Program-made: the position numbers and the translations under genes | Notes under the pieces: model-generated | What the model was told of the DNA's origin: nothing | The model's database searches: none | The model's input: only the letters and a program-made list of their open reading frames with translations | Part shown: positions 4,536 to 33,265 of the stretch, piece after piece | Position numbering within the stretch: position 1 is the stretch's first letter | How the letters are laid out: the number at the start of each line of letters is the position of its first letter | NCBI GenBank assembly: GCA_003820375.1 | Contig: RPQH01000001.1 | Location: 36,874-100,873, forward strand | From: Ignavibacteriota bacterium | GTDB lineage: Bacteria > Bacteroidota > Ignavibacteria > Tepidaquicellales > OLB5 | Direction: 5' to 3' | Length of the DNA stretch: 64,000 nucleotides

Positions 4536-4571
4536 AAAAACAATAAATTTATTAACAATTACCGCATAATT

Positions 4572-7184: not shown

Positions 7185-7559
7185 TCAATCTTCTATTAAT
7201 TGTTGATGTTTTTGTCTCAGAGTTTTAGCTAATTCATTTGCTGACTCTAGTGTTTTTGAAATTTTTTTACCTTCTAAACCTGCAAATATAGCAAAAGGCA
7301 AAAATACAACAATACCTAAAATTAATGCTAATGCATCATCTGATTGTCCTAATAGTGGTATAACATCTGGTATAAGATCTAATGGGCTTATAATATATAA
7401 AACTGAAATACCGGTTAAAGCAAATAAAGATTTACTGAAAACTTTATATAAAAAAGCTTTAATACCGCTGTCTTTCAAATTAAACAATATTAGCAGAGTA
7501 ATTATGATAATAGTAAAACAAATTAATATCCATTTACTAAATTCCCAAAAAGATTCCAT
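7185..7559 (-). CDS. DUF1232 (YkvA-like) small membrane protein
   Basis: SPLDLIPDVIPLLGQSDDALAL motif plus hydrophobic helices. Confidence 0.6.
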   Translation of the reverse strand: MESFWEFSKWILICFTIIIITLLILFNLKDSGIKAFLYKVFSKSLFALTGISVLYIISPLDLIPDVIPLLGQSDDALALILGIVVFLPFAIFAGLEGKKISKTLESANELAKTLRQKHQQLIED

Positions 7560-7910: not shown

Positions 7911-10166
7911 TTATACATCTGTTGGTTTAGGAAGAATTGATCTGTTCTTAAACTCATTAATCTTTTTTCCTTTTGAATCTTTAACAACCTTTCCTTTTTC
8001 ATCTTTAAGCTCAATTTGCATATACCTTGTCTTTTCATTTTCTGGTCTATGATCGAAATCAAGTATTCTTCTTAGCTGCTTCATTCTTTCTACTTCCCAT
8101 AAATCATCGAAGTTATGCGTAGTGTTATCTTGTTCTAAAGTATTTAAAATAAATGTTGCAAATTCATCTTTATATTCATTTACTTTTTTCTGTGATAAGT
8201 GTTCTGTTTCATTTCCCCATTCAGCAAATAAATCATTATATCTATTTACTCTATTAGAGAGAAATAATATTGGAGTTATCCTAATAGATCCAAGTCCAAG
8301 TGGCTTTCCCATGCCAATTTTGTGACAGCATTCTGGTGGTAAATCCAGTGCGAAAAGCAATGCTCCTAGTTCTACGTTTGTTAAGTTTTCGAATCTAATT
8401 CTGCCTTTAAATGTTGCATTTTTAATAGGAGATATTTTTTGGGGATATTGAGTGCTGTGTTTTAATACTTCATCTTTCTTATCCTGTATCCATTGATTGT
8501 CTTCTTTGTGCCAATAGAGCTTATATCCTCTGATATTAGTATTATCATTATAAGTATTTCTCAGAAAAAGATCACCATATGGAGGAAATTTTTTTTGATC
8601 TGCTGTTTTATAGATTTGTTCTAAATAATGTTGAAATGTAGTTGGTTTCGGACTTGATAAAATTTGATGAAAATCCATTTCACTTTTTTGATTATTTCCA
8701 GAAAGTAGCGGAGCATCTTCAAAAAACACTCTACCTGCAAAATCTGCATCATTTCCAAACATCATTTCTGCAATATCAAATTTTTTAATATTATCTTTTT
8801 TGTTACTTTCTTCATCAACTTCAATTTCAAAATTACGAAGTTCATCAGGGATATGTTCTTTTAACGTCTTATTATATCCTAATCTAAAAAATCCATTATG
8901 ACCAAAACTAAATATATTGTTATCTTTTGTAATAAAAAAACATGGTACATCTTTAGATGTGTCTAATAAATCTAGAATATTTCCTTTTCTATTTATATCA
9001 TGATTGTGATTTCTTATTACTTCGTCTGGGATTTTATAATATGTTCCCTCTTCAGAAGTATCAGGGATATCTATTACCCATTGATATTTTTTGTCATTCA
9101 TTTTACCACTTGCTATCAAATATCCTGGTGTCTGATAATTACCTTGTCGGTTTTGCCTTAGACCATCAAGTTCTGCAAATCTTAGAGTTACTGTTCTCTT
9201 CCCCCCGTGAGGAAGATGGTCAGTTTCTGTTGAAGGATTGAAAAAAACTTTTATGAATTTATCATCTTCAATCTCAATAGGCGGAGTCCCTGAATTAGTT
9301 ATTTTATGTTTCCATCCATTATATATTGAAGGTGCTCTATATATTTTTTGAGAAGGATAAATTCTATAATCTTTATAACCAATTTTTTTCAATATACCTG
9401 CTTGAAACATATAAGTATGATTATTATTAACATCAACCATATGTTCAGTATATTGCTTTCTTAATACGCTCATATCTGCCAATGCTCTATAATACAATCT
9501 GTCATTTGAAAAATTTTTGAAATAACCATAAGAAATAATTTCTATTGTAGTTCTTATCATACCCCTTAAACTGCTGCCTGGGATTACTGGTTTAATACCT
9601 AATGGAGAATAAAACTTTGATGTTTTTTCAAAATATTTAATTAGCTCTTTGCTATTTAATAATTCTATCAAAGATTCATATTTTTCTTTTAATTCTTTTT
9701 TATTTTGATTTATTTTATTAGTTATTTCATCAATTTTAGTATTGATTACGTCAATCTCGTTTTTTTTATTACTTTTACTTTTTTCATTCTTCAACTTTTC
9801 GTTTTTATTTAGATCTTTTTCGAGCCTGTAAATAATTTTTTCAAGATGGTTAAATTTGCTTAAATTTATTTTAATCTTTTCAAATACTTCAAACCATTTT
9901 TTGTTATCATGGTTTCCCATAATGAAAATATTGCCTTTTGTATCAATATTTATGTCAATATAACCTGTTTTAAAATTTTCATTACAGTAATATTTATCAA
10001 ACTTATCATTACCAAAATAATAATTAGTAAAAACTACTTTTTCATTAAGTGGAATAAAATTATAAGGGGCACCGCAATAATTTTTATCATCTTTTACATC
10101 TTTTTGTGTTTCTATAGGATTCATTTGTGCTTTAAATAAATGGAAATCAACTGGTTTTTTTGACAT
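7911..10166 (-). CDS. Large RAMP protein, Cas7 with insertion (TIGR03986/all1473-like), type III-D signature subunit
   Basis: GAPYNFIPLNEKVV at the N-terminus, RAMP motif VIPGSSLRGMIRTTIE, glycine loop GMGKPLGLGSIRI. A ~90-aa K/E/N-rich coiled-coil insertion lies between the N-terminus and the RAMP core. Confidence 0.75.
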   Translation of the reverse strand: MSKKPVDFHLFKAQMNPIETQKDVKDDKNYCGAPYNFIPLNEKVVFTNYYFGNDKFDKYYCNENFKTGYIDINIDTKGNIFIMGNHDNKKWFEVFEKIKINLSKFNHLEKIIYRLEKDLNKNEKLKNEKSKSNKKNEIDVINTKIDEITNKINQNKKELKEKYESLIELLNSKELIKYFEKTSKFYSPLGIKPVIPGSSLRGMIRTTIEIISYGYFKNFSNDRLYYRALADMSVLRKQYTEHMVDVNNNHTYMFQAGILKKIGYKDYRIYPSQKIYRAPSIYNGWKHKITNSGTPPIEIEDDKFIKVFFNPSTETDHLPHGGKRTVTLRFAELDGLRQNRQGNYQTPGYLIASGKMNDKKYQWVIDIPDTSEEGTYYKIPDEVIRNHNHDINRKGNILDLLDTSKDVPCFFITKDNNIFSFGHNGFFRLGYNKTLKEHIPDELRNFEIEVDEESNKKDNIKKFDIAEMMFGNDADFAGRVFFEDAPLLSGNNQKSEMDFHQILSSPKPTTFQHYLEQIYKTADQKKFPPYGDLFLRNTYNDNTNIRGYKLYWHKEDNQWIQDKKDEVLKHSTQYPQKISPIKNATFKGRIRFENLTNVELGALLFALDLPPECCHKIGMGKPLGLGSIRITPILFLSNRVNRYNDLFAEWGNETEHLSQKKVNEYKDEFATFILNTLEQDNTTHNFDDLWEVERMKQLRRILDFDHRPENEKTRYMQIELKDEKGKVVKDSKGKKINEFKNRSILPKPTDV

Positions 10167-10179
10167 ATAAATTTCTCCT

Positions 10180-10752
10180 TTATTTCAATATTTTATTATT
10201 TTCATCAACAAATTCAACAAATCTGCAATCTACATACTCCGCCTGGTTATTCTCGTTATAGTCAATGTAATTATGTGTTTTAATTTTTATTCTCTTTTTT
10301 CTATCTTCTATAGATTTGTACTCATTAATTTCAAATTCAAACGGCAGCTTTAAATTTGTTCCTCTTGAATCTTCTAATGTTGAGTATCCAGCACATTTAG
10401 TTGCTCTTGTACCAAATAATACTTGATCAGCCACAACAATATCACATTCCTCACCTTCTTCATCAGTCCTTACTCTCCCTTTCCATTTCCCATCAGTTCT
10501 CCAGACTAAAAGCTCTTTATTCTTATTAAATATTCTCATTTTTTGTATGTATTTCAAATCTAATTGTTCATTATCGTAATTAATAAATTTACCACTTTCA
10601 TATTTCCCAATAATTACTTTATAATCTAAGTAGGTAATAAAATATCCCGTTTCATTATTACCAAATTCCTTTTTAATATCTTCAAGGTTTGCTACTTTTA
10701 TGGCTTTTGCTTCACTTTTTTTAGTGGTCAGATTTAAACCATTATATTCCAT
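10180..10752 (-). CDS. csx19: Small type III-D accessory subunit, Csx19-like (TIGR03984-like)
   Basis: Called on position only: between Cas7-2x and Cas7-insertion, as in III-D(v) operons, and on size (190 aa). No diagnostic motif read. Confidence 0.4.
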   Translation of the reverse strand: MEYNGLNLTTKKSEAKAIKVANLEDIKKEFGNNETGYFITYLDYKVIIGKYESGKFINYDNEQLDLKYIQKMRIFNKNKELLVWRTDGKWKGRVRTDEEGEECDIVVADQVLFGTRATKCAGYSTLEDSRGTNLKLPFEFEINEYKSIEDRKKRIKIKTHNYIDYNENNQAEYVDCRFVEFVDENNKILK

Positions 10753-10754
10753 TC

Positions 10755-12152
10755 TTATTCCTCCTTATAAACATTTAAAGCATCTAATAACGATTGAAGA
10801 TAATTTATATCCTCTTTCTCTAAATCGAGCTTTTTATTAATTATAATTTCTTTTATACCATCCGAAATTGTTGCTTCAATACCTTCCAATACACCTCTTC
10901 CAATGTTTTTTTCTCCTCCTATAGGAAGATCACCTGTCCACAAATCTTTTAGAATTAGTAACATTAATCCAGCTTCATAAGCTTTATCTCTTTTATAATT
11001 GCTTATCTTAATTGATACACGAATTGACTTTTCTTTTTCAGTCCCTTCTTCATTAAAAAGAGGCATTGATTCCATAAGGGCTCCTTTTATTGTTCCCCCA
11101 GTAAATCTGTCAATTTTTATTCTTGTCTGAATTTCTGCCTGACAATTATCTATCAAGTTTTCTTCAATTATGATTCTGCTCTTTGCTGAATTATCCTTTT
11201 CTTTTCCGTCTTTATCATATTGTTTTCCTTCTTTTACAAAACCAAACAAATTATCAATTATCTTTTCTGATTTACCATTAAATTTAGTATTTAAAATCTT
11301 TATGGCTCTGCTTCGTATTGCACCTCTTAAGCTTGTTCCAGGAAGTACATCTTTCCCACATGATTGAATATGGATAGCATCAGGCATCGTGGGGTCTGAT
11401 GGGTAACTTTTCACTATTAATGATGTTTTAACCTTAAACCACGCATCTATAGAAAACATATTTGTGTTCAAATTAAACTTTTCATTATAATCTTTTGTTA
11501 TGCCCTTTCCATTTTCATTTTTTAGCCACTTTATCACATCATTTTTTATTGAAAAATCATATACCTCAAGAAATGGGTCTATTAATTTAATTTTTCCTAA
11601 CCCGCTGGTTGTTTTACTTCCAATAGAAATATTACCTGCTTCTAACTCTGATTTAATTGTATTCATCAATTTAAGAAGAAATTTATAATTTTCTTCTTTA
11701 TAATCCACTATCATATTCAGATCAAATTTTATTCCTCTTTCAGCAATTTCAAAGTCAAACTTGGCTTCTTTAACAGTCATTCCGGTTTTAATGTCAATCT
11801 TAACACCTTCCCTAACAGATGTTAACTCATCAACAGGTACGGCGATTTCATCTATCACAAATAAATCACTGCATTTAATGCTGCTCTGTATTGAAGTTGA
11901 TTTGGTATTTACACCTTGGATTTTATGATATCCCCAGAACTTCGTTAATTCTTCCTTCTCCTTTTCGTCAGCATCATTAAAATTAATAAAGTAATGCCTT
12001 AAGACTCCAATAAAAGATGTTGCAGGTATAAAGGGTTTACCCGAACTATCTTTTAATATGTCTATATCAGTATTATTATCTTCACCGCTGCCAATGCGTA
12101 ATGGTGATAAAAGTTCAATCTTACCTGTTAGTTTTATTTTTCCCTTTTTCAT
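10755..12152 (-). CDS. cas7: Cas7-2x: fusion of two Csm3/Cmr4-type RAMP domains
   Basis: First RAMP: LLSPLRIGSGED..GKPFIPATSFIGVLRH. Second RAMP: GKDVLPGTSLRGAIRSRA. C-terminal G-loop: PIGGEKNIGRGVLEG. Confidence 0.75.
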   Translation of the reverse strand: MKKGKIKLTGKIELLSPLRIGSGEDNNTDIDILKDSSGKPFIPATSFIGVLRHYFINFNDADEKEKEELTKFWGYHKIQGVNTKSTSIQSSIKCSDLFVIDEIAVPVDELTSVREGVKIDIKTGMTVKEAKFDFEIAERGIKFDLNMIVDYKEENYKFLLKLMNTIKSELEAGNISIGSKTTSGLGKIKLIDPFLEVYDFSIKNDVIKWLKNENGKGITKDYNEKFNLNTNMFSIDAWFKVKTSLIVKSYPSDPTMPDAIHIQSCGKDVLPGTSLRGAIRSRAIKILNTKFNGKSEKIIDNLFGFVKEGKQYDKDGKEKDNSAKSRIIIEENLIDNCQAEIQTRIKIDRFTGGTIKGALMESMPLFNEEGTEKEKSIRVSIKISNYKRDKAYEAGLMLLILKDLWTGDLPIGGEKNIGRGVLEGIEATISDGIKEIIINKKLDLEKEDINYLQSLLDALNVYKEE

Positions 12153-12156
12153 GATG

Positions 12157-13698
12157 TTAATTAATTTTCTGTTTGCTCTTCTTTATTGCTTTTCTTAAAT
12201 TAGCAAAAAATGTAAGGAAATATGTCTTATATAAAGTAAATTTAAATTCATTATCATTTTCAGGTTCATAATAATTATACAAAGTTTCATTTTCAGCTTT
12301 CAAAACCTCTATTTCTTTACTCATTATAAAATCCCACAGATTGGATTTATCTGTTTTGCATTCTTTTAATTGCTCCATAGCTATATCTTTAAGTTCTTTT
12401 ATATAATTTTCCCTGAAGTTACTTTCACTATTTGCCGATTTAATAAATGATTCCAATCTTGAAACTAAAGATCCTTTTATTCTTTGATTCAGTTTCCCAT
12501 TATTTTTTCCTTCTATTGTTCTTACATCTTCAAGTGCTTTTAACTTTATTGTTCTGAGTGAATATTCCCGAATAGATTTTTTTATAATTTTTTGAGTGAT
12601 TTCAGGTATAACTTCTTTTTTTAATTCCTGTTCTGAAATCTTTGTTTCAGATGGTGAAAAAGGCTTCACAGTTGATATATCATTTTTTTGTAGTCCAAAT
12701 ATCACTTGACCAAATCCTTCAGCGCGTCGTTCTCCTATTCCATTTAACTGAAGTTCCTGAAGTTTATGCATATTCAATTCATTATCGGGTTTTAAGAGGA
12801 AACAAGATCCTGCTTTAAAACAGGTTTCTGATGGCTTCTTTAATCTCCATACTGACACATAATTTTCAATAAAATCTTTCTTTAAGTATGCTTTTTCAAT
12901 TTTTATATTTAAACCAATTTCTTCTAAATATTCTCTTAATGATTTTATATCTGTAGTTGAAAAGCCATTTTTATTGTATATAATTACATCTGATAAAAAA
13001 GTTAATGAAATCTCAGCTCTATCTTCTATATTTGTTTTTAATTCTTCAATAATATCACAAATTGAAAACTCAATTTCACCATACTGAGAATTTCTTGATC
13101 TGCCAATATAAAAATTGCTTTCATTTAAAAATATTTTTGCTATTTCTTCCAGGTTTCCTTTTTCATCTGAACTAATTTCACCTTTGAAAACCTGATCTTT
13201 ATCAATTGATTCATAGTTAAATATAATACCTTTTTTACTGCTGCCTGTGTCTTTATCTCTTTCATGATGGAAATTTATGCTTTTACTCACAGATGTCTTT
13301 TTGAAGGTCGTACTTTCTATAACTCCAAATCCTCTAATCATTTTTAATGGAACAACTGGTGTCGAATATAGTAATTCAATTGTTTCAGATTGTTTATTCT
13401 TTTTTTCTTTTATGGAAAAGGGAATAGGAATAAATTCTATATCTTCATTATATTCATTTTTTTGTGTAATGTAAGCATTCGAAAATCTCAACTTGCCTTT
13501 TAGAAACCAATCAAAGAAAATATCATTTTCATGTGCTTTACTATTTAGTTTGTTTTTTGCAATATATCTTCCTGCAAGCATACCAAGAACAGATGTGCCG
13601 GGAATATATTCATATGTAGTTACTGTGTTTCTTTCTCCGGATGACTTTGCAATTAGTAAAGGAGCTTTAGCTTTAATTTGATACTTCAGTTTGTACAT
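12157..13698 (-). CDS. csx10: Csx10 (Cas5-like RAMP) with a C-terminal all-helical extension that may replace a separate Cas11
   Basis: YEYIPGTSVLGMLAGRYI and LNGIGERRAEGFGQVIFG are Csx10-type motifs. The last ~170 aa are K/E-rich and helical, and no separate small-subunit gene is present. Confidence 0.6.
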   Translation of the reverse strand: MYKLKYQIKAKAPLLIAKSSGERNTVTTYEYIPGTSVLGMLAGRYIAKNKLNSKAHENDIFFDWFLKGKLRFSNAYITQKNEYNEDIEFIPIPFSIKEKKNKQSETIELLYSTPVVPLKMIRGFGVIESTTFKKTSVSKSINFHHERDKDTGSSKKGIIFNYESIDKDQVFKGEISSDEKGNLEEIAKIFLNESNFYIGRSRNSQYGEIEFSICDIIEELKTNIEDRAEISLTFLSDVIIYNKNGFSTTDIKSLREYLEEIGLNIKIEKAYLKKDFIENYVSVWRLKKPSETCFKAGSCFLLKPDNELNMHKLQELQLNGIGERRAEGFGQVIFGLQKNDISTVKPFSPSETKISEQELKKEVIPEITQKIIKKSIREYSLRTIKLKALEDVRTIEGKNNGKLNQRIKGSLVSRLESFIKSANSESNFRENYIKELKDIAMEQLKECKTDKSNLWDFIMSKEIEVLKAENETLYNYYEPENDNEFKFTLYKTYFLTFFANLRKAIKKSKQKIN

Positions 13699-14360
13699 TT
13701 TTTTTCAATATTTTTTAGATAATGATCATTTAAATTTATTTTTCCAAATAATATACATTCAATTTCACCAAATCCTCTGTTCCTTTTGGTGCCCATACTT
13801 CTCAAATTTGCACATGCTAATGATAATAATTCTATATAATCTTCTTCATTATTTTCAATACTAATTTCACAATAGAACTTATTATTCTTATTACAAACTC
13901 TGATTGTTCTTAATGAATTATTTTTTGCCTTACTATCTTCTATTGCTGTTTGATGCCTGATTGTTGTGAAATATTTCTCTACTTCTTCTCTTGGGATAAT
14001 TTCCGGATATTCTTTAATAAAGTACTTTAGGTATTTAAAATTTTCCTTGTAATCTTGGATATATAAGTTAGAAAAATAAACATAAGCTGGTTCTTTCTGT
14101 CCGGGACTGCCGAAAATTTTGTCGATTATTCCTGCATTATAAGTTATCTTGATGCCTGCTGAAATTAGCATATCAACTACCTCTTCAGCAGAATCCTTCA
14201 GTAATCCTTTTATCCTTTTTGCAGGTATATATGGTATTCCAGCTTCATCGAAATGGATATCACTGTCTATTATAGCGCCGCCTGTTTCACCGGAACCAAT
14301 TAATGTATCAGATTTTAGTGTGATTTCAAGTTTATATTTTTCCATTTTATTCAAGTTCAA
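13686..14360 (-). CDS. cas7: Cas7 (Csm3/Cmr4 family RAMP)
   Basis: LIGSGETGGAIIDSDIHFDEAGIPYIPAKRIKGLLKD and MGTKRNRGFGEIEC. Overlaps both neighbouring genes by 13-14 nt. Confidence 0.75.
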   Translation of the reverse strand: MNLNKMEKYKLEITLKSDTLIGSGETGGAIIDSDIHFDEAGIPYIPAKRIKGLLKDSAEEVVDMLISAGIKITYNAGIIDKIFGSPGQKEPAYVYFSNLYIQDYKENFKYLKYFIKEYPEIIPREEVEKYFTTIRHQTAIEDSKAKNNSLRTIRVCNKNNKFYCEISIENNEEDYIELLSLACANLRSMGTKRNRGFGEIECILFGKINLNDHYLKNIEKKCTN

Positions 14361-15840
14361 ATTTTGGGTAAAGTTCTGTGAGTTCTATCATGTCAAAATA
14401 TGGAGTTACATTATTTTGAAATAATGATTTAGAGTAATTATAATCTATATGGTAATTTGGTAGAGTTATACCTTTTGATTTTAACTGATTTAAAAATTCA
14501 TTCCCAATTTCTTTTTCACAGGTTAATACCTCTCTTAATTCTTTTATCTTAGATGAAGATAGAATTTGTTTTTCACTGGAGTCTTTCTTTATAAGTAAGC
14601 GAGTATTTTCTATTATTTTATCAAAATCATATATATCATTTTTATTCCTGCTCAATCTATAAGGTCTTATTAGCAAACATTTATCTTTAATCTTAAAATA
14701 TTTGTCTCTTATATCTTCAATAGGTGCAGATATCCCGGCATAGGCAATATGGAAATCTATCCAGGAACCTTCACTTCTACCTATATTCTTTCTAACAGAT
14801 TTAGCATTACCACATAACTCTTCTGCCAGGATGTAACCTTTATAGAAGGGGTATTTTTGTTTTATTATTGCTACGCCTGCACAAGCTGTTAATTTGCTTT
14901 CAATTTCAAATTTTTCAATAAATTTTTTTGCAAAATATATTCCTAACCTTCCATCGCAAACAAAGGTAATATCATCTCCACCAAGAATTATAGGTCTTAT
15001 TGGAATGAGTTTTTTATTATCCCAGCTTATTTCTTTTTCAATTTTCTCTTTTTCCTGTATTATAGTCTCTAATAAAAACTTAAAGGATTCTGTAACAGAA
15101 TCTTCTAAAATCTTAGATAGGTCTTTTATTTCTTTAAGGGTTTTACGTTTACCAAATTCTTCGCCAACTCCATTCCCATCAATATGCACAATAGCTATAT
15201 GGCTGTCTTCACCTTTGCTGCTGCCTAAATCCTCAAATTCCAGAGGAAAATCTAATTTACCTAAAACATCGTTAAAATCTCCAATAAATTTCAAATTAGC
15301 AGGTTCATAATAATTCAATTTTGTCTTTGCAATGGATGATATATAGTCTCCTTCTTCGCCTTCATCATGCTTTTCTTCGTACCATGATTCAGCGGAATAA
15401 CCGGTTCTTGGGCATTCTTCATTTATTCCATGAGAGGGGAGGGTAATAACCGGAACATATTTACCTTTATTCTCATCTAGTTTATTAAAAAGAGCTTCTT
15501 TAAACTCATTAAACTTTTCAGTATCATCTAAATCAATTGTTCCATCACTAATTGCACAAGCAATTGATACTCCGGGTGCTTTTATTAATAAGTCTCTTGT
15601 AAAGTTTTTTATAAATTTAATCGCTTCGCTTTTATCTTCAAAAAAAAGTAAAGCGTTCCCTCCACCTATATAACCAACTTTATCACAAATATATGTTCCA
15701 TCTTTATCAGCTTCTGTGATTTCTTCATATATATTGCTGATTATATAAGATGCACCTAGATTTTCCTTCAGCTTACTGCTCCCAAATACATATTGCTGAA
15801 TGGAGGTTGTGTCAAGTAATACGCCGTAATATTTTTTCAT
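14347..15840 (-). CDS. cas10: Compact Cas10 (497 aa) lacking an HD domain, with an intact GGDD cyclase palm
   Basis: HIAIVHIDGNGVGEEF (palm metal-binding strand) and PIILGGDDITFVCDG (GGDD). N-terminal GYIGGGNALLFF resembles a degenerate first palm. No H-D motif at the N-terminus. Confidence 0.75.
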   Translation of the reverse strand: MKKYYGVLLDTTSIQQYVFGSSKLKENLGASYIISNIYEEITEADKDGTYICDKVGYIGGGNALLFFEDKSEAIKFIKNFTRDLLIKAPGVSIACAISDGTIDLDDTEKFNEFKEALFNKLDENKGKYVPVITLPSHGINEECPRTGYSAESWYEEKHDEGEEGDYISSIAKTKLNYYEPANLKFIGDFNDVLGKLDFPLEFEDLGSSKGEDSHIAIVHIDGNGVGEEFGKRKTLKEIKDLSKILEDSVTESFKFLLETIIQEKEKIEKEISWDNKKLIPIRPIILGGDDITFVCDGRLGIYFAKKFIEKFEIESKLTACAGVAIIKQKYPFYKGYILAEELCGNAKSVRKNIGRSEGSWIDFHIAYAGISAPIEDIRDKYFKIKDKCLLIRPYRLSRNKNDIYDFDKIIENTRLLIKKDSSEKQILSSSKIKELREVLTCEKEIGNEFLNQLKSKGITLPNYHIDYNYSKSLFQNNVTPYFDMIELTELYPKFELE

Positions 15841-15841
15841 T

Positions 15842-17110
15842 TTATTTGATAAATTCTTTAATTTTTTTTAAGAAAATTTCTTTTCTTAGATCTTTTCTAC
15901 CCAAAACTAATATTTTTTTGCCCACACCAAGATCTGTTTCAAGTTCTTCTCCTAATAACTTTATATCAGATACACCTGATTCATGATGAGATATTTCTTC
16001 TTCCATAGTAGTTATTAAAATACTTTTTGCTTCTGAACCGCCAATTTGCTGGACTCTATGAATAACTTCAAAAGCCTTGCTCTTACATTCCGACTTATTT
16101 GAACTTGTTGTACAAGAAATTCCTATTAATTGGTATCCATTAATCCAAGCGACATCTAGTTGGAATCGTTCTGTGATGCCCTCTTTCTTCATTTTCCAAT
16201 CATGATAAACGTTCTTTGAGTTATCTTTTAGTAATTTATAAATAAACATTTCCAGCATAACTCCAGAAAAGAATTCTATTATTTCCTGTAACCTGGGATT
16301 ATATTCTAAACCTGTATTGAATTCTCCATTTGTTTTGAAAAAACGAATGTTGGGAGGTAATGTATTATTAATTTCTAATAGCTTTCCTTCTATTGTATAA
16401 AACTTAAATATTTCTTTTTTACTATTGAATGTTTCTTCACATACTAATTTAGAGTTTGCCATAAATGAATAAAAAAAATATTTTAAACTTTTATTTTCTT
16501 TTTTGTCACTTATTATAAAAAGTTTATCGGTATTATAACTTACCCACTCGCCATATAAATTTGCTGCTTTAAAAAAAATTTCTCGGTCATTATTTAGTCT
16601 TTTATAACTATGCAAAGAAATTAAATCTTTTAGTTCTATATCAATTTCTTTTCTTAAATCAATATAATCTAAATCTTTATCAGGATTAATTAATGCAAAT
16701 GTTCTTGCAGACAGATATGAGTAGCTTTTTTCTTTTACTTCCAAACTATTTATCCATTCATAAACAAAAATACCCATAACCTTTGTACCGCCGGTATAAT
16801 TGAGATGAATTCTATTTCCTAATTCTCTCTTTAAGTTATCGTTTAAATCATTTTTTAAAGTTTGTGCATTTTCTACATCTGTTAGGGGAATTAAATTAAT
16901 CTCACCTTTAAAATTTTTTGCAGTTTCATTTAGCACGCATTTAATGTTATCTGCATAATCTTTAGTGGATCTTTGATGATCTTCGGCTGAATACAACAGC
17001 CAAACATTTTTCAATTCGGGATTATTATCTATAATATACTTCGCTGTTACATAGTTGGGCAGGGGATTGGTGCCGATTAATAAGATTAGGTCAGTAAAGT
17101 TAAATCCCAT
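15842..17110 (-). CDS. CARF + PD-(D/E)xK-like nuclease fold protein (Card1/Can2, DUF1887-like)
   Basis: N-terminal DLILLIGTNPLPNYV Rossmann-like CARF start. C-terminal ERFQLDVAWINGYQLIGISCTTSSNKSECKSKAFEV..IGGSEAKSILIT resembles the DUF1887 nuclease core. First gene of the cas operon. Confidence 0.65.
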   Translation of the reverse strand: MGFNFTDLILLIGTNPLPNYVTAKYIIDNNPELKNVWLLYSAEDHQRSTKDYADNIKCVLNETAKNFKGEINLIPLTDVENAQTLKNDLNDNLKRELGNRIHLNYTGGTKVMGIFVYEWINSLEVKEKSYSYLSARTFALINPDKDLDYIDLRKEIDIELKDLISLHSYKRLNNDREIFFKAANLYGEWVSYNTDKLFIISDKKENKSLKYFFYSFMANSKLVCEETFNSKKEIFKFYTIEGKLLEINNTLPPNIRFFKTNGEFNTGLEYNPRLQEIIEFFSGVMLEMFIYKLLKDNSKNVYHDWKMKKEGITERFQLDVAWINGYQLIGISCTTSSNKSECKSKAFEVIHRVQQIGGSEAKSILITTMEEEISHHESGVSDIKLLGEELETDLGVGKKILVLGRKDLRKEIFLKKIKEFIK

Positions 17111-17483: not shown

Positions 17484-17799
17484 GTTTCGACAATCGGCTT
17501 ACGCCTCATTCATATTTTAACGCCGAAGTGATTTATAACAATTCAGAGGTCGCTGAGTTTCAATCGGCTTTCGCCTCATTCATATTTTAACCGTATCAAA
17601 GATACTCAAGGACAATGGCATAATGTTTCAATCGGCCTAAGCCTCATTCATATTTTAACGACTAACACCCCCAATTGTTATTAAATTAAATGAAGTTTCA
17701 ATCGGCCTAAGCCTCATTCATATTTTAACAACACGTCTATCGGATTACGAGATGTAGCGTTCGAGTTTCAATCGGCCTAAGCCTCATTTATATTTTAAC
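17484..17799 (-). CRISPR. CRISPR array 1: 5 repeats, 33-35 nt spacers
   Basis: Repeats start at 17484 (degenerate, 38 nt, gtttcGACaatcgg), 17557, 17625, 17695 and 17765. Plus-strand consensus is GTTTCAATCGGCCTAAGCCTCATTCATATTTTAAC. The reverse complement ends in ATTGAAAC, so the array is called minus-strand. The degenerate terminal repeat is at the low-coordinate end. Confidence 0.95.
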
Positions 17800-22132: not shown

Positions 22133-22137
22133 TATAT

Positions 22138-25100: not shown

Positions 25101-27295
25101 ATTTCAATCTGCATTCGTCTCATTCATTTTAAAGCCAACATCATTTTCACAAACTAGCGGCTCCACTAACAAGTTTCAATCGGCATTCGCCTCATTCATG
25201 TAAAAAGGCAGATAAGACCACCGAAATCACAACAAAGAGAAGAGTTTCAATCGGCTATCGCCTCATTCATGTAAAAAGTTCAGCTTCAAAGATTGCTATC
25301 ACTTCCAACAAGGAGTTTCAATCGGCCTAAGCCTCATTCATATTTTAACTAAAAATAAACCCGAAAACGTAAAGGTTCATACTTACGGTTTCAATCGGCT
25401 TTCGCCTCATTCATGTAAAAAGCGAAAAGTCATCGTATCAAAGGGGTCAACCAAAGAGTTTCAATCGGCTTTCGCCTCATTCATGTAAAAAGACTTTGCA
25501 ATGACAAATGTTCAGGGAAGCTTCTATAAAGGTTTCAATCGGCTTTCGCCTCATTCATGTAAAAAGTCACCATATTCGGTGAATTCTGGGGAAATCGTAA
25601 ATTGAGTTTCAATCGGCTTTCGCCTCATTCATGTAAAAAGCCTTCAAGACTTCATAAACGATAACACCACAGTTTCAATCGGCTTTCGCCTCATTCATGT
25701 AAAAAGAAAGAATGCTGTTATCTCAGTAATAAATCCTGAGTTTCAATCGGCTTTCGCCTCATTCATGTAAAAAGACAAAACGTGTAATTGCCAATAAGTC
25801 CAAATCCAGGTTTCAATCGGCTTTCGCCTCATTCATGTAAAAAGGATGACCCATGAAGAAAAGATGAAAGAAATTGAGTTTCAATCGGCTTTCGCCTCAT
25901 TCATGTAAAAAGATATATTCTGAAAAGGTACAACCTATCATTAAAGTAGAGTTTCAATCGGCTTTCGCCTCATTCATGTAAAAAGGTTATTTCGCAATCA
26001 ACATATATTTTAATTAAGCGTTTCAATCGGCTTTCGCCTCATTCATGTAAAAAGTATCATTACTTATAATTGAACCAACTCCAAATTTTCTTAGGTTTCA
26101 ATCGGCTATCGCCTCATTCATGTAAAAAGAAATAGATACTGCTTATGTGAAAACCGGATACGTTTCAATCGGCTTTCGCCTCATTCATGTAAAAAGAATG
26201 AAGCTCAGCCACCTATTGTGGTTGAAAAAGAGTTTCAATCGGCTTTCGCCTCATTCATGTAAAAAGAACAGTTTCAACAGCCCGTGACTTATAACTACGG
26301 AGTTTCAATCGGCTTTCGCCTCATTCATGTAAAAAGTCATTTGGACAAGGCTGGACCACAGAGTTCAATTGCGGTACGTTTCAATCGGCTTTCGCCTCAT
26401 TCATGTAAAAAGGGGAGAGCAAAAGAATCGCAATCTCACTCGAGCGTTTCAATCGGCTTTCGCCTCATTCATGTAAAAAGGGGACAGAACCTGAAAAGGT
26501 TGATTTCATTCACTGGAGTTTCAATCGGCTATCGCCTCATTCATGTAAAAAGGGTAGTAAAACTGTCAACGCAGTTTGCCACAAAGGGGCAGTTTCAATC
26601 GGCTTTCGCCTCATTCATGTAAAAAGTCTTACTGATTACGCTACAAAAACGTATGTTGATGAGTTTCAATCGGCTTTCGCCTCATTCATGTAAAAAGGAG
26701 AAAAGGACAAGATTGAACGGAAAATTCGGATAATGAGTTTCAATCGGCTTTCGCCTCATTCATGTAAAAAGCTTTGAACTGGTATAACTTCAAATACATT
26801 TCACAAGAGTTTCAATCGGCCTTAGCCTCATTCATGTAAAAAGATATCAATTCCGAAACCCAGAGAAACCGTTGAACAGGGGGTTTCAATCGGCCTTAGC
26901 CTCATTCATGTAAAAAGCTGCACATAAAGGAGTATTTAATGAAATCAATTACGTTTCAATCGGCTTTCGCCTCATTCATGTAAAAAGTCTGATTTCGAAT
27001 ACGGCATGGTTACAATACACAGCGTTTCAATCGGCTTTCGCCTCATTCATGTAAAAAGATACAGAGATTGCGAAACATTCGGTTCGTACGCGGAGTTTCA
27101 ATCGGCCTTAGCCTCATGCATGTTTTAACTACGACTTTGTCGTAAACTTAAGCACCGATGAATACCGAGTTTCAATCGGCTTTCGCCTCATTCATGTTTT
27201 AACAACAGACCTGGTGCAAGCGGTAAGATAAATGCGTTTCAATCGGCTTTTCCTTAGATTCCGTCTTCAGCGGGAAGCCTCATTCAGTTTTCTGA
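25101..27295 (-). CRISPR. CRISPR array 2: 31 repeats, directly abutting the 3' end of cas6-RT
   Basis: Plus-strand consensus is GTTTCAATCGGCTTTCGCCTCATTCATGTAAAAAG (35 nt), with spacers ~32-39 nt. The first unit at 25101 is degenerate, and a further probable relic repeat lies at 25031-25064. The last three units (27087, 27159, 27236) are variants. The unit at 27236-27295 carries a 25-nt loop insertion and ends 8 nt from the cas6-RT stop. Confidence 0.95.
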
Positions 27296-27302
27296 TAATA
27301 AA

Positions 27303-28832
27303 TTAATGTAAATTTCTGTTTTTATCAATGATATATAAATCTTCACCATCCTTTATCAGCTTGCAGTTACCTGGCAGCATTTCATCAAGCCGGTCAAGGT
27401 AAAGATTTATGAGCATAGGATTTAGCATTCTATTATATGGAATACCTTCATATGATGTGACCATATTTCCTTCTATACAAACCGGCTGTGTTATCCATAC
27501 CCTTATCAGGTCACTTACCGGATCACCACCGAATAATGTTTCTATTCGCTCGTATAATACATCCTTATTAATATAGCTGTAGAAAGAGTCTATATCAATT
27601 TTATTATATTCGTAACCATTTTTTTCTGCTTCATCAAGCATCTTTAATGCTCCCTCTTTCGAAAACCCATTCCTGTAAAAAAATGAGCTTTCTCCTATAT
27701 ACTTATTTATCACGGGTTCAGCAATTTGTTTTACTGCCAGCTGAAGTGTTCTTTCTTCAAGATTAAATTCAGTATGAATGTTAATTCCATCATGTTCTTC
27801 AGTTATAGTACCGGTAAACGGTTTAGCTTCATATTTGCCTGTAATTACTTCATTGATTAAATTATCTAAATTCTCATTAATTTTTGAATTAAATTTCTTT
27901 ACTTTTAGTTTATCGCTAATTGTTAAGCTATTATCCGATGCCAATACTTTATAGGCATTCAAAACATTTTCTTTTTTGACTGCTTTTGCAAGAAATGTTT
28001 CATAAGGAGATAACTCGCTAACATTGTACCCGGGAATATTTGTAACTGAATTTTTTCCAAATCCAAAGGATGTATTATTTCCATTATTAATAAACTGTCC
28101 GAACCATAAAAGCAATTTTAAGTCTGCTGAAAGCTCAGCAGTAAATTTTACTTTGCCTGAAACTCCTCCAAGTGTTTTGGATGTATATGGCATATCAAGC
28201 CACATAAGGTTAATATAATTAACTGCACAGTGAAGAAATTCTAAAGAAGGGTCACATTCATCAACTGAATTGCCGCATAATATTGATAAGCGTTTTACTC
28301 TATAATATAATAGTTTTAAAAATTGTCTTATATCAAAATATTCCCGGTCAAAATATTTATGCCCGGGTACAGGATATTCTCTTACCATTCTTAATGGTGA
28401 CCTAAGCCATAGCTCATATTCTTCTTCACCTCCATCTGTAAAATCCGGTATAATTTCCGTTTTAATTTCAGTTATATCTTCTAATGTAAATATTCCTTCT
28501 ATGCTGTTCTCTTTCGGTATATAAGAAGAAATTGATTTTAGCTTGCTTTCAAGATGGTCAATAAAATAATCACCTGCATTTATTGCGGTAATTCCGAAGT
28601 TATAGCAATCTCCTGATTGGTAAGATGTTCTTCCTGATTCTACCGCATTAATGATAATATCCTCACCAAGCTTGTTAACGCCTCTTTTCATGGTTTTACA
28701 AATAAGGTCATAGAGCTTTGAGCCATGGAAGAAAAGAAAATTTACATCATTGTTAAATTTAATTGTGACTTTAAATCTTTTATATGAAATAGATTTAATT
28801 AGTTCTTTAACAGGAAAATTGAAGTGATTCAT
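27303..28832 (-). CDS. cas6: Cas6 fused to a truncated/degenerate reverse-transcriptase domain (no Cas1 part)
   Basis: The N-terminal ~265 aa end in the Cas6 G-rich loop FINNGNNTSFGFGKNS. The C-terminal part has RT motifs in order: LEERTLQLAVKQIAEPV (1), FFYRNGFSKEGALKML (2), NKIDIDSFYSYINKDVL (3/A), GIPYNRMLNPMLINLYLDRLD (4/B). It then reads LIKDGEDLYII where YxDD (5/C) is expected, and the protein stops 8 aa later. Confidence 0.7.
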   Translation of the reverse strand: MNHFNFPVKELIKSISYKRFKVTIKFNNDVNFLFFHGSKLYDLICKTMKRGVNKLGEDIIINAVESGRTSYQSGDCYNFGITAINAGDYFIDHLESKLKSISSYIPKENSIEGIFTLEDITEIKTEIIPDFTDGGEEEYELWLRSPLRMVREYPVPGHKYFDREYFDIRQFLKLLYYRVKRLSILCGNSVDECDPSLEFLHCAVNYINLMWLDMPYTSKTLGGVSGKVKFTAELSADLKLLLWFGQFINNGNNTSFGFGKNSVTNIPGYNVSELSPYETFLAKAVKKENVLNAYKVLASDNSLTISDKLKVKKFNSKINENLDNLINEVITGKYEAKPFTGTITEEHDGINIHTEFNLEERTLQLAVKQIAEPVINKYIGESSFFYRNGFSKEGALKMLDEAEKNGYEYNKIDIDSFYSYINKDVLYERIETLFGGDPVSDLIRVWITQPVCIEGNMVTSYEGIPYNRMLNPMLINLYLDRLDEMLPGNCKLIKDGEDLYIIDKNRNLH

Positions 28833-29033
28833 TTTGACAGTTATTGATTTTGAAATAATAACTTTGCTGGTTCAGATATGTTGCAGCTAAAAATTTCCTT
28901 CAAAAGCAGAAACGAAAAAGAAATTAGTTCAAGCAACTTCACAAATATAATCAAAGAAGATAAAAGTTTGTAACCGTTTTATTTTTCAATAATAATAAAA
29001 CCACAGATGAGAGGAAAAAGGGAGTATATAATT

Positions 29034-29182
29034 ATCGGTTTACGCTTACCTAAATTTAGAATTGTCGATTGTCAATTGCGAATTAAGAATTAATAAATAA
29101 TCAGCCGTTGCATAAGAATAAATAGAAAAACATAAACACACCATATCACACACCCCTTCTTCGGAGGGGATGGGGGAGGCTG
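29034..29182 (-). promoter_or_regulatory. Type-1 inter-array leader-like element, copy a (relic repeat + AATTNNN heptads + GC hairpin)
   Basis: The relic repeat is atcggtttacgc at 29034. Six heptads span 29053-29094. The conserved block aagaataaatagaaaaa..acaccatatcacacacccc is present. The hairpin CCCCTT-cttcg-GAGGGG lies at 29153-29169. It is homologous to 30011-30146. Confidence 0.5.
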
Positions 29183-29773
29183 CTCCTAATCGGCCTTAGC
29201 CTCATTCATATTTTAACATTATGAACGCTGGTTTTGCCAAAGTTTATGAGGAGTTTCAATCGGCTTTCGCCTCATTCATGTAAAAAGTCCAATACGGAGT
29301 ATCTGAATTAGCTCAAGAGGTTTCAATCGGCTTTCGCCTCATTCATGTAAAAAGTCCAATACGGAGTATCTGAATTAGCTCAAGAGGTTTCAATCGGCTT
29401 TCGCCTCATTCATGTAAAAAGAAAACACCAAGTTGAATAACAAACCCACATTACTGAGTTTCAATCGGCTTTCGCCTCATTCATGTAAAAAGACCTTCCA
29501 TGAAGATTATGGTTATATTCTCAGGAGTTTCAATCGGCTTTCGCCTCATTCATGTAAAAAGAATTATTGGACTTTTGTTGTTTATAGCAATTCGTTTCAA
29601 TCGGCTTTCGCCTCATTCATATTTTAACGCGGAAAATACGATGAGCATCCTACAGGCAATGAGGGAGTTTCAATCGGCCTTAGCCTCATTCATATCTTAA
29701 CGACCTTGTCGCAGGTATCACAGTTTCAGGATGGCAGGAGTTTCAATCGGCCTTAGCCTCATTTTATACAAAT
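29183..29773 (-). CRISPR. CRISPR array 3a: 9 repeats (mixed repeat families), includes a tandemly duplicated spacer
   Basis: Repeat starts: 29183 (5' end degenerate), 29253, 29320, 29387, 29458, 29527, 29594, 29667, 29739. The last diverges after ..cctcatt. Confidence 0.9.
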
Positions 29774-29841
29774 ATAATAAATTGAAAAACAACTTTACAT
29801 CACAGTAATCGTTTTCCCGCTAAAAGCGGGATCTTCGCTTT
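29774..29841 (-). promoter_or_regulatory. Type-2 inter-array leader-like element, copy a (AT-rich block + CCCGC hairpin)
   Basis: Sequence ..aatataataaattgaaaaacaactttacatcacagtaatcgttttCCCGCTaaaAGCGGGatcttcg.. Hairpin at 29816-29830. Homologous to 31403-31469. Confidence 0.5.
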
Positions 29842-30010
29842 GCTTCGACAATCGGCTTTCGCCTCATTCATGTAAAAGTCACCCATCAATTGCTTTCTAC
29901 ACCTTCAGGAAATCAGTTTCAATCGGCTTTCGCCTCATTCATGTAAAAAGCGGGCTGCTCTGTGGCAAAGATTCAATGTGGTCGCCGTTTCAATCGGTTT
30001 TCGCCTCATT
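29842..30010 (-). CRISPR. CRISPR array 3b: 3 repeats
   Basis: Repeats at 29842 (degenerate, gcttcGACaatcgg), 29916 and 29987. The last diverges after ..cctcatt. Confidence 0.85.
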
Positions 30011-30146
30011 TTCTCAATTGCGAATTTCGAATTGTGAATCTCGAATTGAGTATAAATAAAATAACGAGTCGGAGAAAAAGAATAAATAGAAAAATATAAA
30101 TACACCATATCACACACCCCTCCTTCGGAGGGGAAGGGGGAGGCTG
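30011..30146 (-). promoter_or_regulatory. Type-1 inter-array leader-like element, copy b
   Basis: The five heptads are aattgcg|aatttcg|aattgtg|aatctcg|aattgag at 30016-30050. The conserved block is present. The hairpin CCCCTC-cttcg-GAGGGG lies at 30117-30133. Confidence 0.5.
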
Positions 30147-31402: not shown

Positions 31403-31507
31403 TAACAAATTGAAAAACAATTTTACATCACAGTAATCATTTTCCCGCCAAGGGCGGGATCTCTGCTTCGCTACGACAATCGGCTTTCGCCTCATTCAAT
31501 CAAAAAT
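31403..31507 (-). repeat. Type-2 leader-like element copy b plus an orphan degenerate repeat (31470-31507)
   Basis: Sequence aatataacaaattgaaaaacaattttacatcacagtaatcattttCCCGCCaagGGCGGGatctctg, then gctacGACaatcggctttcgcctcattcaat. Hairpin at 31444-31458. Confidence 0.6.
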
Positions 31508-31540
31508 ATGGAAATGTTTTATTAATTAAAATTATAAAAT

Positions 31541-33238: not shown

Positions 33239-33265
33239 AATGATATAGGTTGTGCTGTTATTAAA

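Follow-up and report, generated by a model that had tools for sequence, protein, structure and literature searches.

A complete and probably functional type III-D CRISPR interference module of the Synechocystis III-Dv lineage in an Ignavibacteriota bacterium

The closest described relative of the locus analysed here is the type III-Dv system of Synechocystis sp. PCC 6803 (sll7067-sll7063; PDB 8S9T/U/V/X), in which Cas7 is fused to Cas5-Cas11 in one 791-aa protein, RNA is cut at three sites, and a truncated Cas10 of 558 aa, already solved and assayed, makes cyclic oligoadenylate (cOA) that activates Csx1; its helpers are Csx1 and Csm6 (Schwartz et al. 2024, PMC11026444). The type III-D system of Thermoanaerobacter brockii uses TbrCan2 (PDB 8Q3Y-8Q44), a cA4-specific ancillary nuclease that binds only cA4; its residue E341 is a metal ligand, and the E341A mutant served as the inactive form (PMC10783487). 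Type III-D1, as in Saccharolobus SsoCsm (PDB 8BMW), encodes each Cas7 as a single domain, keeps Cas11 separate and has a Cas10 of 829 aa, with neither a Cas7-2x fusion nor an INS-bearing Cas7. Type III-D2 (Cas7x3, Cas7-5, Cas10, CorA) has three fused Cas7 domains, no Csx19, no Cas11 domain on Cas5 and a GGDE motif, and makes SAM-AMP and SAM-AMP2 (Mitsuda et al. 2026, PMC13294483). Type III-E Cas7-11 (gRAMP) consists of one polypeptide and has no Cas10, Cas5 or Csx19.

The window, a 64,000-nt stretch of an Ignavibacteriota genome (contig RPQH01000001.1), holds seven minus-strand genes at 17110..7911 in the order can2, cas10, cas7, csx10/cas5 with a Cas11-like tail, cas7-2x, csx19 and cas7-insertion (Table 1). 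The six open reading frames from cas10 onward that a preliminary description had listed were all found. Profile E-values across the operon, obtained with three HMM libraries (including Pfam, PADLOC and TIGR models), range from 1e-37 to 1e-139, showing that these ORFs are not chance. Start and stop codons had been said to overlap between several genes; the 13-nt overlap of cas7 and csx10 is certain, a 14-nt overlap of cas10 and cas7 exists only with the cas7 TTG start, and the remaining junctions are gaps of 1-13 nt. Since no intergenic gap exceeds 13 nt, the operon has no free-standing cas11, as previously noted.

Table 1. Coordinates of features in the window.
Feature	Position	Strand	Description
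small CRISPR array	17487..17799	+	5 repeats, beside operon; all five end in ATTTTAAC
fragmented main CRISPR arrays	25101..36062	+	74 more repeats, most of which end in GTAAAAAG
cas6-RT	28832..27303		interrupts main arrays
csx3-AAA cassette	34486..31541		interrupts main arrays
can2	17110..15842	-	CARF + PD-(D/E)xK ancillary nuclease, 422 aa; first operon gene, ends 1 nt before cas10
cas10	15840..14347	-	497 aa; HD-less large subunit: Palm1, linker, Palm2 with GGDD, helical C-terminal domain
GGDD cyclase motif	14971..14982	-	Cas10 residues 287-290; translation checked directly
stand-alone cas7	14345..13686 (ATG) or from 14360 (TTG)	-	219 aa or 224 aa; predicted catalytic D27
csx10/cas5 with Cas11-like helical tail	13698..12157	-	513 aa
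Cas11-like helical tail	12633..12160	-	residues 356-513 of csx10 product
cas7-2x	12152..10755	-	two fused Cas7 domains, 465 aa; predicted catalytic D29, D258
csx19	10752..10180	-	small protein, 190 aa
cas7-insertion	10166..7911	-	TIGR03986 RAMP, 751 aa
K/E/N-rich helical hairpin	9905..9621	-	Cas7-insertion residues 88-182, beta1-alpha1 loop

As first proposed, the operon is subtype III-D, a reading shared by profile HMMs, sequence matches in PDB and two AlphaFold models of good confidence: the scores for Csx19 (TIGR03984) and TIGR03986 both exceed the curated cut-offs, and the operon also encodes a Csx10-type Cas5 and a Cas10 with no HD domain. The nearest solved structure is, again as suggested earlier, the Synechocystis III-Dv complex 8S9T, whose chains C, A and E are the best matches for Cas10, the Cas5-tail protein and Cas7-insertion (by sequence and by fold, with 8s9v_A also on top by fold for the Cas5-tail protein). 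The two systems have the same domain set in the same order (HD-less GGDD Cas10, Cas7, Cas5(Csx10), Cas11-like, Cas7-2x, Csx19 and a TIGR03986 Cas7 with INS), and their catalytic aspartates and basic residues align. The analysis itself shows which genes are present, the families they belong to, their folds and the conserved state of the catalytic residues. The same gene order, can2 included, was seen repeatedly across many phyla among 80 loci retrieved. We are confident that the locus, whose gene arrangement is the commonest in the Synechocystis III-Dv lineage, is a complete and probably functional III-D interference module belonging to that lineage.

Stand-alone Cas7 matched Pfam RAMPs (E 5.6e-18) and PADLOC Cas7_IIId PDLC02113 (E 3.4e-43), and also positions 1-192 of the fused-type Cas5_IIId profile PDLC02091. 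Residues 2-504 of the csx10 product aligned to positions 215-704 of the 709 in that same profile (E 8e-67); PDLC02090 matched as well (E 2.5e-65), and TIGR02674 Csx10 matched under its equivalog cut-off (E 2e-27). Foldseek searches with the AlphaFold model of this protein (pLDDT 90.3) returned the Cas7-Cas5-Cas11 chains 8s9v_A and 8s9t_A on top (E 1e-28, ~565 aligned columns), followed by Cmr3/Csm4; homology to the Csx10-type Cas5 of III-D1 (8bmw_M) was also found. The tail is all-helical in the model over residues 356-512, and in a 65-sequence alignment residues 360-500 are collinear with Synechocystis 617-766, its Cas11 domain, with K503 at the position of R769 (K or R in 55 of the 65). A tail-only profile gave no sequence-level match in PDB, and it is fold and collinearity that suggest a Cas11-like identity. 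Cas7-2x matched Pfam RAMPs over two stretches (E 3.6e-36) and Cas7_IIId PDLC02111 (E 2.2e-109), and Csx19 matched TIGR03984 (E 3e-37; 127.9 bits vs a cut-off of 35) and PADLOC Csx19 (E 1.8e-42). The predicted catalytic aspartates are conserved: Cas7 D27 corresponds to Synechocystis D26 (D in 76/76 sequences), Cas7-2x D29 to D33 (59/65), and D258 is D in 62/65.

The gene upstream of cas10 is a Can2 orthologue belonging to the operon. Its product matched PADLOC CARF4--CARF_PDDEXK over the full length (E 9e-93), Pfam CARF_Card1 (42.2 bits) and TbrCan2 (PDB 8q3y, E 1.8e-39 over residues 4-372), and 47 of 65 related loci have a homologue immediately upstream of their cas10. A near-identical homologue of TbrCan2 in Thermoanaerobacter sp. 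A7A (701 bits) is likewise directly upstream of a same-family Cas10, in a locus where Cas7-Cas5-tail is one fused 732-aa gene rather than split. The active-site motif (E287, Q317-x-D319, S332-x-T334-T335-S336, K345) keeps the E...D-SxTTS-K elements of TbrCan2, with Q for the first E of its ExD motif. This residue, Q317, occupies the position of E341 and is Q in 6 of 38 family members; it may alter Can2 activity.

The arrays comprise 79 repeats, all oriented the same way and separated by spacers of mostly 31-43 nt, with two distinct 8-nt tags and mixed repeat variants. Cas6-RT is without its Cas1 part, no cas1 or cas2 was seen in the window, and the adaptation module looks decayed. Could the entire module be a decaying remnant, its effector or signalling arm non-functional and only arrays and ORFs persisting? 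The truncated Cas6-RT, the missing cas1 and cas2, the fragmented, variant-bearing arrays, Can2 Q317 and the absence of a TP.YIRD motif from Cas7-insertion would all fit, but we consider this very improbable, as the seven operon ORFs are all unbroken, lie close together and match their family profiles at full length, and catalytic residues are kept in Cas10 and three Cas7 domains. The presence of Q at the Can2 position in five other genomes suggests a tolerated variant, and the Synechocystis Cas7-insertion lacks catalytic function too.

Cas10 residues 7-494 aligned to positions 5-460 of the 462-position PADLOC Cas10d profile PDLC02057 (E 5.7e-122), with further matches to Pfam Cas10-Cmr2_palm2 (residues 215-352) and PDB 8s9t_C (E 7.7e-25). 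The GGDD motif, reported as intact, is so; it aligns with Synechocystis G306-D309, and its columns hold G 71, G 79, D 79 and D 79 times among 79 aligned family members. The palm residues, whose possible degeneracy had been raised, are conserved in the family alignment, as is a C-terminal K/R pair. The absence of an HD domain also held: the protein opens directly with the Palm1 motif (residues 5-31), and its lone HD dipeptide, H158-D159, sits in a non-conserved loop. With these palm residues, and with a CARF-AAA+ protein and a Csx3-AAA protein in the window besides Can2, active nucleotide signalling is a fair inference, as had been argued. Because the characterised Thermoanaerobacter Can2, from a same-family locus, is cA4-activated, the likely order by analogy is target RNA binding, then cA4, then Can2. 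It is very improbable that this Cas10 makes SAM-AMP or SAM-AMP2 instead of cOA, as its similarly compact counterpart in the sister variant III-D2 was shown to do (PMC13294483). In both variants Cas10 is compact, its C-terminal domain is Cas11-like and the terminal Cas7 carries an INS; however, no CorA match was found among the ORFs scanned in the CRISPR island, the operon does not have the III-D2 architecture (Cas7x3, Cas7-5, no Csx19), its motif is GGDD vs GGDE, the conserved partner Can2 is a CARF protein whose characterised orthologue binds only cA4, and the nearest solved relative makes cOA.

For the functional, cOA-signalling module, we infer stoichiometry, cleavage sites and signal identity as follows. 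Going by the homologous complex 8S9T, Cas10, Cas7, Cas5-Cas11, Cas7-2x, Csx19 and Cas7-insertion would each be present once, assembled on one fixed-length crRNA that carries an 8-nt repeat-derived 5' tag; the nearby Cas6-RT protein would release this crRNA from the arrays through its Cas6 domain. Once the crRNA has paired with a complementary transcript, that transcript would be cut at three sites by the predicted catalytic residues Cas7 D27 and Cas7-2x D29 and D258, helped by basic residues in the Cas11-like tail and in the C-terminal domain of Cas10 (K433, R436). A non-self 3' flank would turn on the Cas10 palm domains to make cOA, most likely cA4, which would bind the co-transcribed Can2 dimer at its CARF domains and activate its nuclease towards DNA and RNA in single-stranded form; elsewhere in the island, the CARF-AAA+ and Csx3-AAA proteins probably answer to, or degrade, the same signal.

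The preliminary description had called this Cas10 unusually small and the operon a less-fused relative of III-Dv. Cas7 is indeed a gene separate from Cas5-Cas11, and Cas10 is 61 aa shorter than that of Synechocystis (24% identical), but 74 full-length relatives span 467-645 aa (median 521.5), and 1396 database proteins match at E <= 1e-5, the best 120 nearly all of 474-584 aa; no fewer than 581 species-representative genomes encode a relative. The split layout dominates, in 68 of 75 scorable related loci vs 7 fused. A distinct evolutionary intermediate with a new minimal, cyclase-only large subunit, as might be read from a Cas10 ~330 aa shorter than III-D1 8bmw_K (to which its Palm2 matches), a match to just the Palm2 part of the Csm1 model (474-689 of 753) and the unfused Cas7, is scarcely credible against these counts, the end-to-end Cas10d match and the truncated Synechocystis enzyme, and as a novelty claim is already refuted; the alignments do not show this Cas10 to lack any domain that the 480-560-aa relatives have. 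The operon is ordinary: in its family, which spans hundreds of species, a short Cas10 and partly unfused subunits are usual.

All that sets it apart is a helical hairpin of ~95 aa in Cas7-insertion, a protein that lacks the ~110-aa N-terminal domain of its Synechocystis counterpart. This protein matched TIGR03986 (E 1.3e-106; 358 bits vs a cut-off of 161) and PADLOC PDLC02114 (E 7.8e-139), and its AlphaFold model (pLDDT 79.3) retrieved 8s9t_E on top (E 7e-19), then III-E Cas7-11, whose Cas7.4 matches the C-terminal Cas7 and INS (sequence E 6e-12, fold E 2e-18). The ~90-aa coiled-coil segment described earlier is real, with helices at 88-130, 135-170 and 173-182 in the model, but it is not the insertion that names the III-Dv subunit, as the canonical INS domain is further along, at about residues 223-500. 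The distance from PYNF to IPGSSLRG is 161 aa here and 52-141 aa (median 73) in 55 homologues, and for most of the segment the other 57 sequences have no aligned residue; it is a lineage-specific expansion of the beta1-alpha1 loop. The same protein has GN.FIMG in place of the near-invariant TP.YIRD motif; the Cas7-insertion of Synechocystis is itself non-catalytic.

An ORF reading of the window placed seven closely spaced genes on the minus strand, with products of, in order, 422, 497, 224 (219 from the ATG), 513, 465, 190 and 751 aa that correspond to can2, cas10, cas7, csx10/cas5 with a helical tail, cas7-2x, csx19 and cas7-insertion. The preliminary description gave the last six genes and their lengths correctly but did not include in the operon the upstream 422-aa gene, which stops 1 nt short of cas10. 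It also reported overlaps between several genes, for which only the 13 nt shared by cas7 and csx10 are certain; a second overlap exists only with a TTG start of cas7, and the rest are gaps (1, 1, 4, 2 and 13 nt in the operon). Between 7100 and 18400, neither promoter-like sites (77 vs 65.9 +/- 9.1) nor terminator-like sites (4 vs 3.6) were in excess over shuffled sequence, and such a scan says little about an AT-rich organism that probably does not follow the sigma-70 consensus.

Profile HMMs for the TIGR03984, TIGR03986, Csx10 and Cas10 families uphold the assignment of this operon to subtype III-D. Csx19 scored 127.9 bits against NCBIfam TIGR03984 (cut-off 35) and matched the PADLOC Csx19 model at E 1.8e-42, while Cas7-insertion scored 358.3 bits against TIGR03986 (cut-off 161.35) and matched the large PADLOC Cas7_IIId model at E 7.8e-139. 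The csx10 product reached E 2e-27 and 96 bits against TIGR02674, under the 177-bit equivalog cut-off, and was matched as a Csx10-type Cas5 by 11 PADLOC Cas5_IIId models (best E 8e-67); in Foldseek its Cas5 fold matched the Cas5 domains of Cmr3, Csm4 and 8S9T, the III-Dv effector complex of Synechocystis sp. PCC 6803 and the nearest solved relative. All seven operon genes received full-length PADLOC matches, including Cas10 to Cas10d PDLC02057 (E 5.7e-122, residues 7-494 on 5-460 of 462 positions), the stand-alone Cas7 to Cas7_IIId (E 3.4e-43), Cas7-2x to the double Cas7_IIId (E 2.2e-109) and the 422-aa product to CARF-PD-DExK (E 9e-93). When PDB sequences were searched, the best matches were 8S9T chain C for Cas10, 8S9T chain A for the Cas5 protein and III-E Cas7-11 for the large Cas7, which also matched 8S9T chain E. 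The operon has the four III-D features that were checked, namely a Csx10-type Cas5, Csx19, a TIGR03986 RAMP and a III-D-clade Cas10 without an HD domain.

At the sequence level the operon adds a new member to a widespread system type that has been characterised both structurally and biochemically. Since publications already cover this type, its short Cas10, its structure and its signalling partner, the operon carries little weight as a discovery. The earlier observation is confirmed with small corrections; the case for III-D and for active signalling holds, but the claims of an exceptional Cas10 and a rare intermediate layout do not. Modest by-products are a count of split versus fused forms at the Cas7|Cas5 junction and the recognition of Can2 as the habitual partner of this clade.

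Cas10, at 497 aa, had been called unusually small, yet it lies within the 467-645 aa range (median 521.5) of 74 full-length relatives from 80 related III-D loci that were fetched. A word-indexed search returned 1396 proteins at E <= 1e-5, and nearly all of the best 120 were 474-584 aa long with coverage of 98-100%; when each species was represented by a single genome, at least 581 genomes were found to carry a Cas10 relative. The closest relatives share 52-55% identity with the window protein, and the Synechocystis Cas10 is 558 aa. A variable Palm1 loop of ~25 aa (alignment columns 58-82), absent from the window protein and its nearest relatives, is the main reason why it falls at the short end of the range. 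It is ~330 aa shorter than the 829-aa III-D1 Cas10 in 8BMW, and of the Csm1 model it matched the Palm2 part only. The absence of an HD domain was described correctly, as the protein starts with Palm1 and its one HD dipeptide sits in a variable loop; loss of this domain is a truncation already described for III-Dv Cas10 (PMC11026444). GGDD is intact, with its four columns kept in 71, 79, 79 and 79 of 79 sequences, and the palm, checked for degeneracy, is intact as well: across 25 diverse relatives there is no variation at D10, I14, Q15, G29, S31, G59-G61, H219-N223, G287-D290, K327, K329 or R436.

The 513-aa csx10 product was modeled by AlphaFold (pLDDT 90.3) as a beta-rich, two-lobed body to about residue 346 followed by an all-helical bundle at 356-512 that is itself modeled with high pLDDT. 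Its top four Foldseek matches were Synechocystis Cas7-Cas5-Cas11 chains (E ~1e-28, ~565 columns in the full-length alignment to 8s9t_A), with Cmr3, Csm4 and type VII Cas5 among the lower matches. In a 65-sequence alignment that included fused forms and Synechocystis, residues 360-500, in the tail, were collinear with 617-766, the Cas11 domain, of the Synechocystis protein. K503 aligned with an arginine that belongs to cleavage site 2 in Synechocystis, R769 (PMC11026444), in a column that holds K or R in 55/65 sequences. A profile built from the tail only (A2, 38 sequences) found no Cas11 among PDB sequences, its best match being ribosome-recycling factor at chance level (E 0.057); the Cas11 label therefore rests on fold and collinear position. 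The stand-alone cas11 reported as absent is indeed absent, and a Cas11-like domain is instead predicted to be fused to Cas5, as in III-Dv.

In the window, Cas7 (219 aa) and Cas5-tail (513 aa) are each encoded by their own ORF, in contrast to the single Cas7-Cas5-Cas11 protein of Synechocystis. On PADLOC model PDLC02091, which was built from fused proteins and has 709 positions, Cas7 covered 1-192 and Cas5-tail 215-704, an alignment that identifies the two as halves of what is a single gene elsewhere. When the ORFs of the 80 related loci were compared with the window proteins, the junction was split at 68 loci and fused at 7, and 5 loci ended too early to score. This less-fused layout had been viewed as a rare intermediate, but it is the form found at 68 of the 75 scorable species-level loci, so the Synechocystis arrangement is the exception. 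Cas5-tail proteins had a median length of 509 aa at the related loci, and a database search returned 224 relatives, often labelled Csx10 by JGI, of which the best 120 were mostly ~495-550 aa with full coverage. Fused loci fell in at least four separate places on a neighbour-joining Cas10 tree that is crude and indicative only, and fusion or fission at this junction seems to have recurred.

Residues aligned with the Synechocystis RNA cleavage sites are largely kept. The stand-alone Cas7 has D27 at the position of Synechocystis D26 (D in 76/76). Cas7-2x contains two RAMP stretches by Pfam and, as a III-Dv double fusion should, two aspartates: D29, which aligns with Synechocystis D33 and is kept in 59/65 sequences, and D258 in a P-D motif of the second domain, kept in 62/65. 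Cas10 K433 and R436 align with Synechocystis H487 and R490, which assist cleavage site 3 (PMC11026444). The plasmid list of that study names D487 in Cas10 and D678 and D769 in Cas7-5-11, whereas the native residues are H487, R678 and R769; we use the latter naming because the native sequence and the results text agree. The Synechocystis III-Dv complex is defined by one copy of each subunit, a fixed 37-nt crRNA and three cleavage sites, and by analogy three RNA cleavage sites would be expected in the window complex.

An AlphaFold model of Cas7-insertion (pLDDT 79.3) matched 8s9t_E best in Foldseek (E 7e-19), followed by Cas7.4-INS of Cas7-11. Residues 192-234 and 502-630 aligned with Synechocystis 189-233 and 528-675, leaving a beta-rich block of ~270 aa between them, so placed that the INS domain typical of III-Dv spans approximately residues 223-500. 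The ~90-aa coiled-coil segment noticed earlier in this protein is present at 88-182 but is not the INS insertion of the family. The model predicts two helices here (88-130 and 135-170) that form a hairpin inserted after strand beta1 and before the IPGSSLRG helix. No other feature of the operon is lineage-specific: the distance from PYNF to IPGSSLRG is 161 aa in the window vs a median of 73 (range 52-141) in 55 homologues, an alignment of 57 relatives offers no counterpart for most of the segment, and in the closest relatives this position is taken by a charged loop of 45-50 aa. Just ahead of the hairpin, GN.FIMG replaces the near-invariant TP.YIRD, and the protein also lacks an N-terminal domain of ~100 aa present in many relatives, so that hairpin and both losses coincide. 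In Synechocystis, this N-terminal domain is not visible in the cryo-EM map (PMC11026444) and Cas7-insertion itself is non-catalytic. We think it rather improbable that the hairpin has a role of its own, for example as a partner-docking arm or as a lid on the crRNA 3' seed that alters target admission; it may instead be a neutral low-complexity expansion. Elsewhere in the family, Cas7-insertion relatives of 1040-1139 aa occur at two of the fetched loci (L019, 15732-19151; L048, 8342-11464), a database relative (P0348) carries ABC/SMC-type ATPase Pfam domains at its C-terminus, and two anammox-related genomes (Kuenenia, Loosdrechtia) have a tandem TIGR03986 Cas7-insertion pair after csx19 (L013, 16317-20910; L063, 16272-20979).

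The 422-aa protein that the preliminary description did not count in the operon is, as judged from its sequence, Can2. It matched the structure of the Thermoanaerobacter brockii enzyme TbrCan2 (8q3y) over residues 4-372 at E 1.8e-39, while its score against Pfam Card1_endonuc was 21.1 bits, under the 26.4 cut-off. TbrCan2 is described as a type III-D ancillary nuclease that binds only cA4, cuts single-stranded DNA and RNA with Mn2+, and has the active-site motif E-ExD-SxTTS-K (PMC10783487). The window protein combines an N-terminal CARF with a C-terminal PD-(D/E)xK domain and keeps E287, D319, S332, T334, T335 and K345 of this motif, except that Q317 (16160-16162) replaces the first E of ExD, the metal-binding E341 of TbrCan2. 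Q also occupies this position in 5/37 relatives (loci L009, L018, L022, L053 and L067).

A Can2 homologue lies directly upstream of cas10 in 47/65 related loci; this Cas10 clade is thus habitually paired with Can2, which supports cA4 as its usual signal. At one of these loci (L058), from Thermoanaerobacter sp. A7A, a Can2 near-identical to TbrCan2 (701 bits) is directly upstream of a Cas10 of the same family. Synechocystis III-Dv produces cOA upon encountering cognate RNA (PMC11026444). Taken together with the Can2 evidence, this makes cA4 the most likely signal of the window Cas10, and cA4 would activate Can2 as expected from TbrCan2 biochemistry. SAM-AMP, considered in view of the 2026 study of III-D2, is an unlikely signal, since the motif is GGDD, the partner is Can2 and none of the island ORFs that were scanned matched CorA. 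The sister variant III-D2, which makes SAM-AMP, has Cas7x3 and Cas7-5, GGDE and a CorA partner and lacks Csx19 (PMC13294483), whereas the window system has Csx19, GGDD and Cas7 fused twofold only. The case for active signalling stands, with a conserved GGDD palm and a Can2 partner both consistent with it, and the three sensor classes reported in the window are present as Can2, a CARF (TIGR02584) fused to AAA+, and Csx3-AAA.

Features of the CRISPR island in the window
Feature	Position	Strand	Remark
CARF (NE0113-type) + sigma-54-type AAA+ fusion, 516 aa	2985-4535	+	TIGR02584 118.6 bits, above cut-off
863-aa protein after CARF-AAA+ gene	pair spans 2985-7163	+	C-terminal half VirD4/TraD/HerA-like ATPase
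DUF1232 membrane protein	7559..7185		downstream of the operon
III-D operon	17110..7911	-	seven genes
CRISPR array adjoining the operon	17487-17799		5 repeats
Low-GC (0.23-0.25) gene trio	18374-24889	+	between two CRISPR arrays
Big CRISPR arrays	25101-36062
Cas6-reverse transcriptase fusion, 509 aa	27303-28832	-	ends right at CRISPR array
Arrays with both repeat variants intermixed	29253-31507
Csx3-AAA protein, 309 aa	32470..31541	-	part of three-gene cassette 31541-34486
Two adjacent tyrosine integrase paralogues, 419 aa each	36348-39024	-	right edge of CRISPR island

[quoted passage not shown] In the array adjoining the operon each of the five repeats ends in ATTTTAAC, and most repeats of the big arrays end in GTAAAAAG; the corresponding candidate crRNA tags are AUUUUAAC vs GUAAAAAG, and the repeat stem occurs as GGCTTTCGCC vs GGCCTAAGCC or GGCCTTAGCC. 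A single effector is visible in the window. The Cas6-reverse transcriptase lacks the Cas1 domain known from Cas6-RT-Cas1 proteins, and neither cas1 nor cas2 was seen within the window; relatives of this fusion are located near 15/80 related III-D loci.

Two sets of neighbouring genes were considered as further parts of the system. The DUF1232 protein, a candidate membrane effector, was set aside because it is found at only 1/80 related loci. The low-GC trio, which encodes a 1252-aa protein, a 212-aa protein and then a 662-aa protein with a REC domain, is not part of the III-D system either, since the 1252-aa gene and the two downstream of it are absent near all 80 related loci. The 1252-aa protein has no family in Pfam, NCBIfam or PADLOC, and the 212-aa protein is also uncharacterised. 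At E <= 1e-3 the 1252-aa protein matched 397 representative relatives, one of which gave a sub-threshold HATPase_c match, and its conserved core lies at about residues 480-1200. The three genes may form a module of two-component-like type that serves defence or regulation.

The left flank of the island contains HNH and ArdC-like genes, located upstream of the CARF-AAA+ gene, as well as the VirD4/TraD-like gene, whose C-terminal half also resembles the PADLOC model 'mad8'. Beyond the integrases at the right edge are higher-GC, housekeeping-type genes. The HNH, ArdC-like and VirD4-like genes together with the two integrases suggest that the island may lie on an integrated mobile element.

The Csx3-AAA gene shares its cassette with two genes whose products have no Pfam, PADLOC or NCBIfam family: one is a 406-aa protein for which four TM helices are predicted, the other a predicted lipoprotein of 255 aa carrying a DxSxS (VDFSKS) vWA-like motif. 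Together the three genes may be a membrane-associated accessory module that has not yet been described. It adjoins III-D operons in two other genomes (L007, 6961-9822; L016, 13686-17155), with weaker copies at L023 and L027, and at L007 it is located immediately upstream of cas10, replacing can2.
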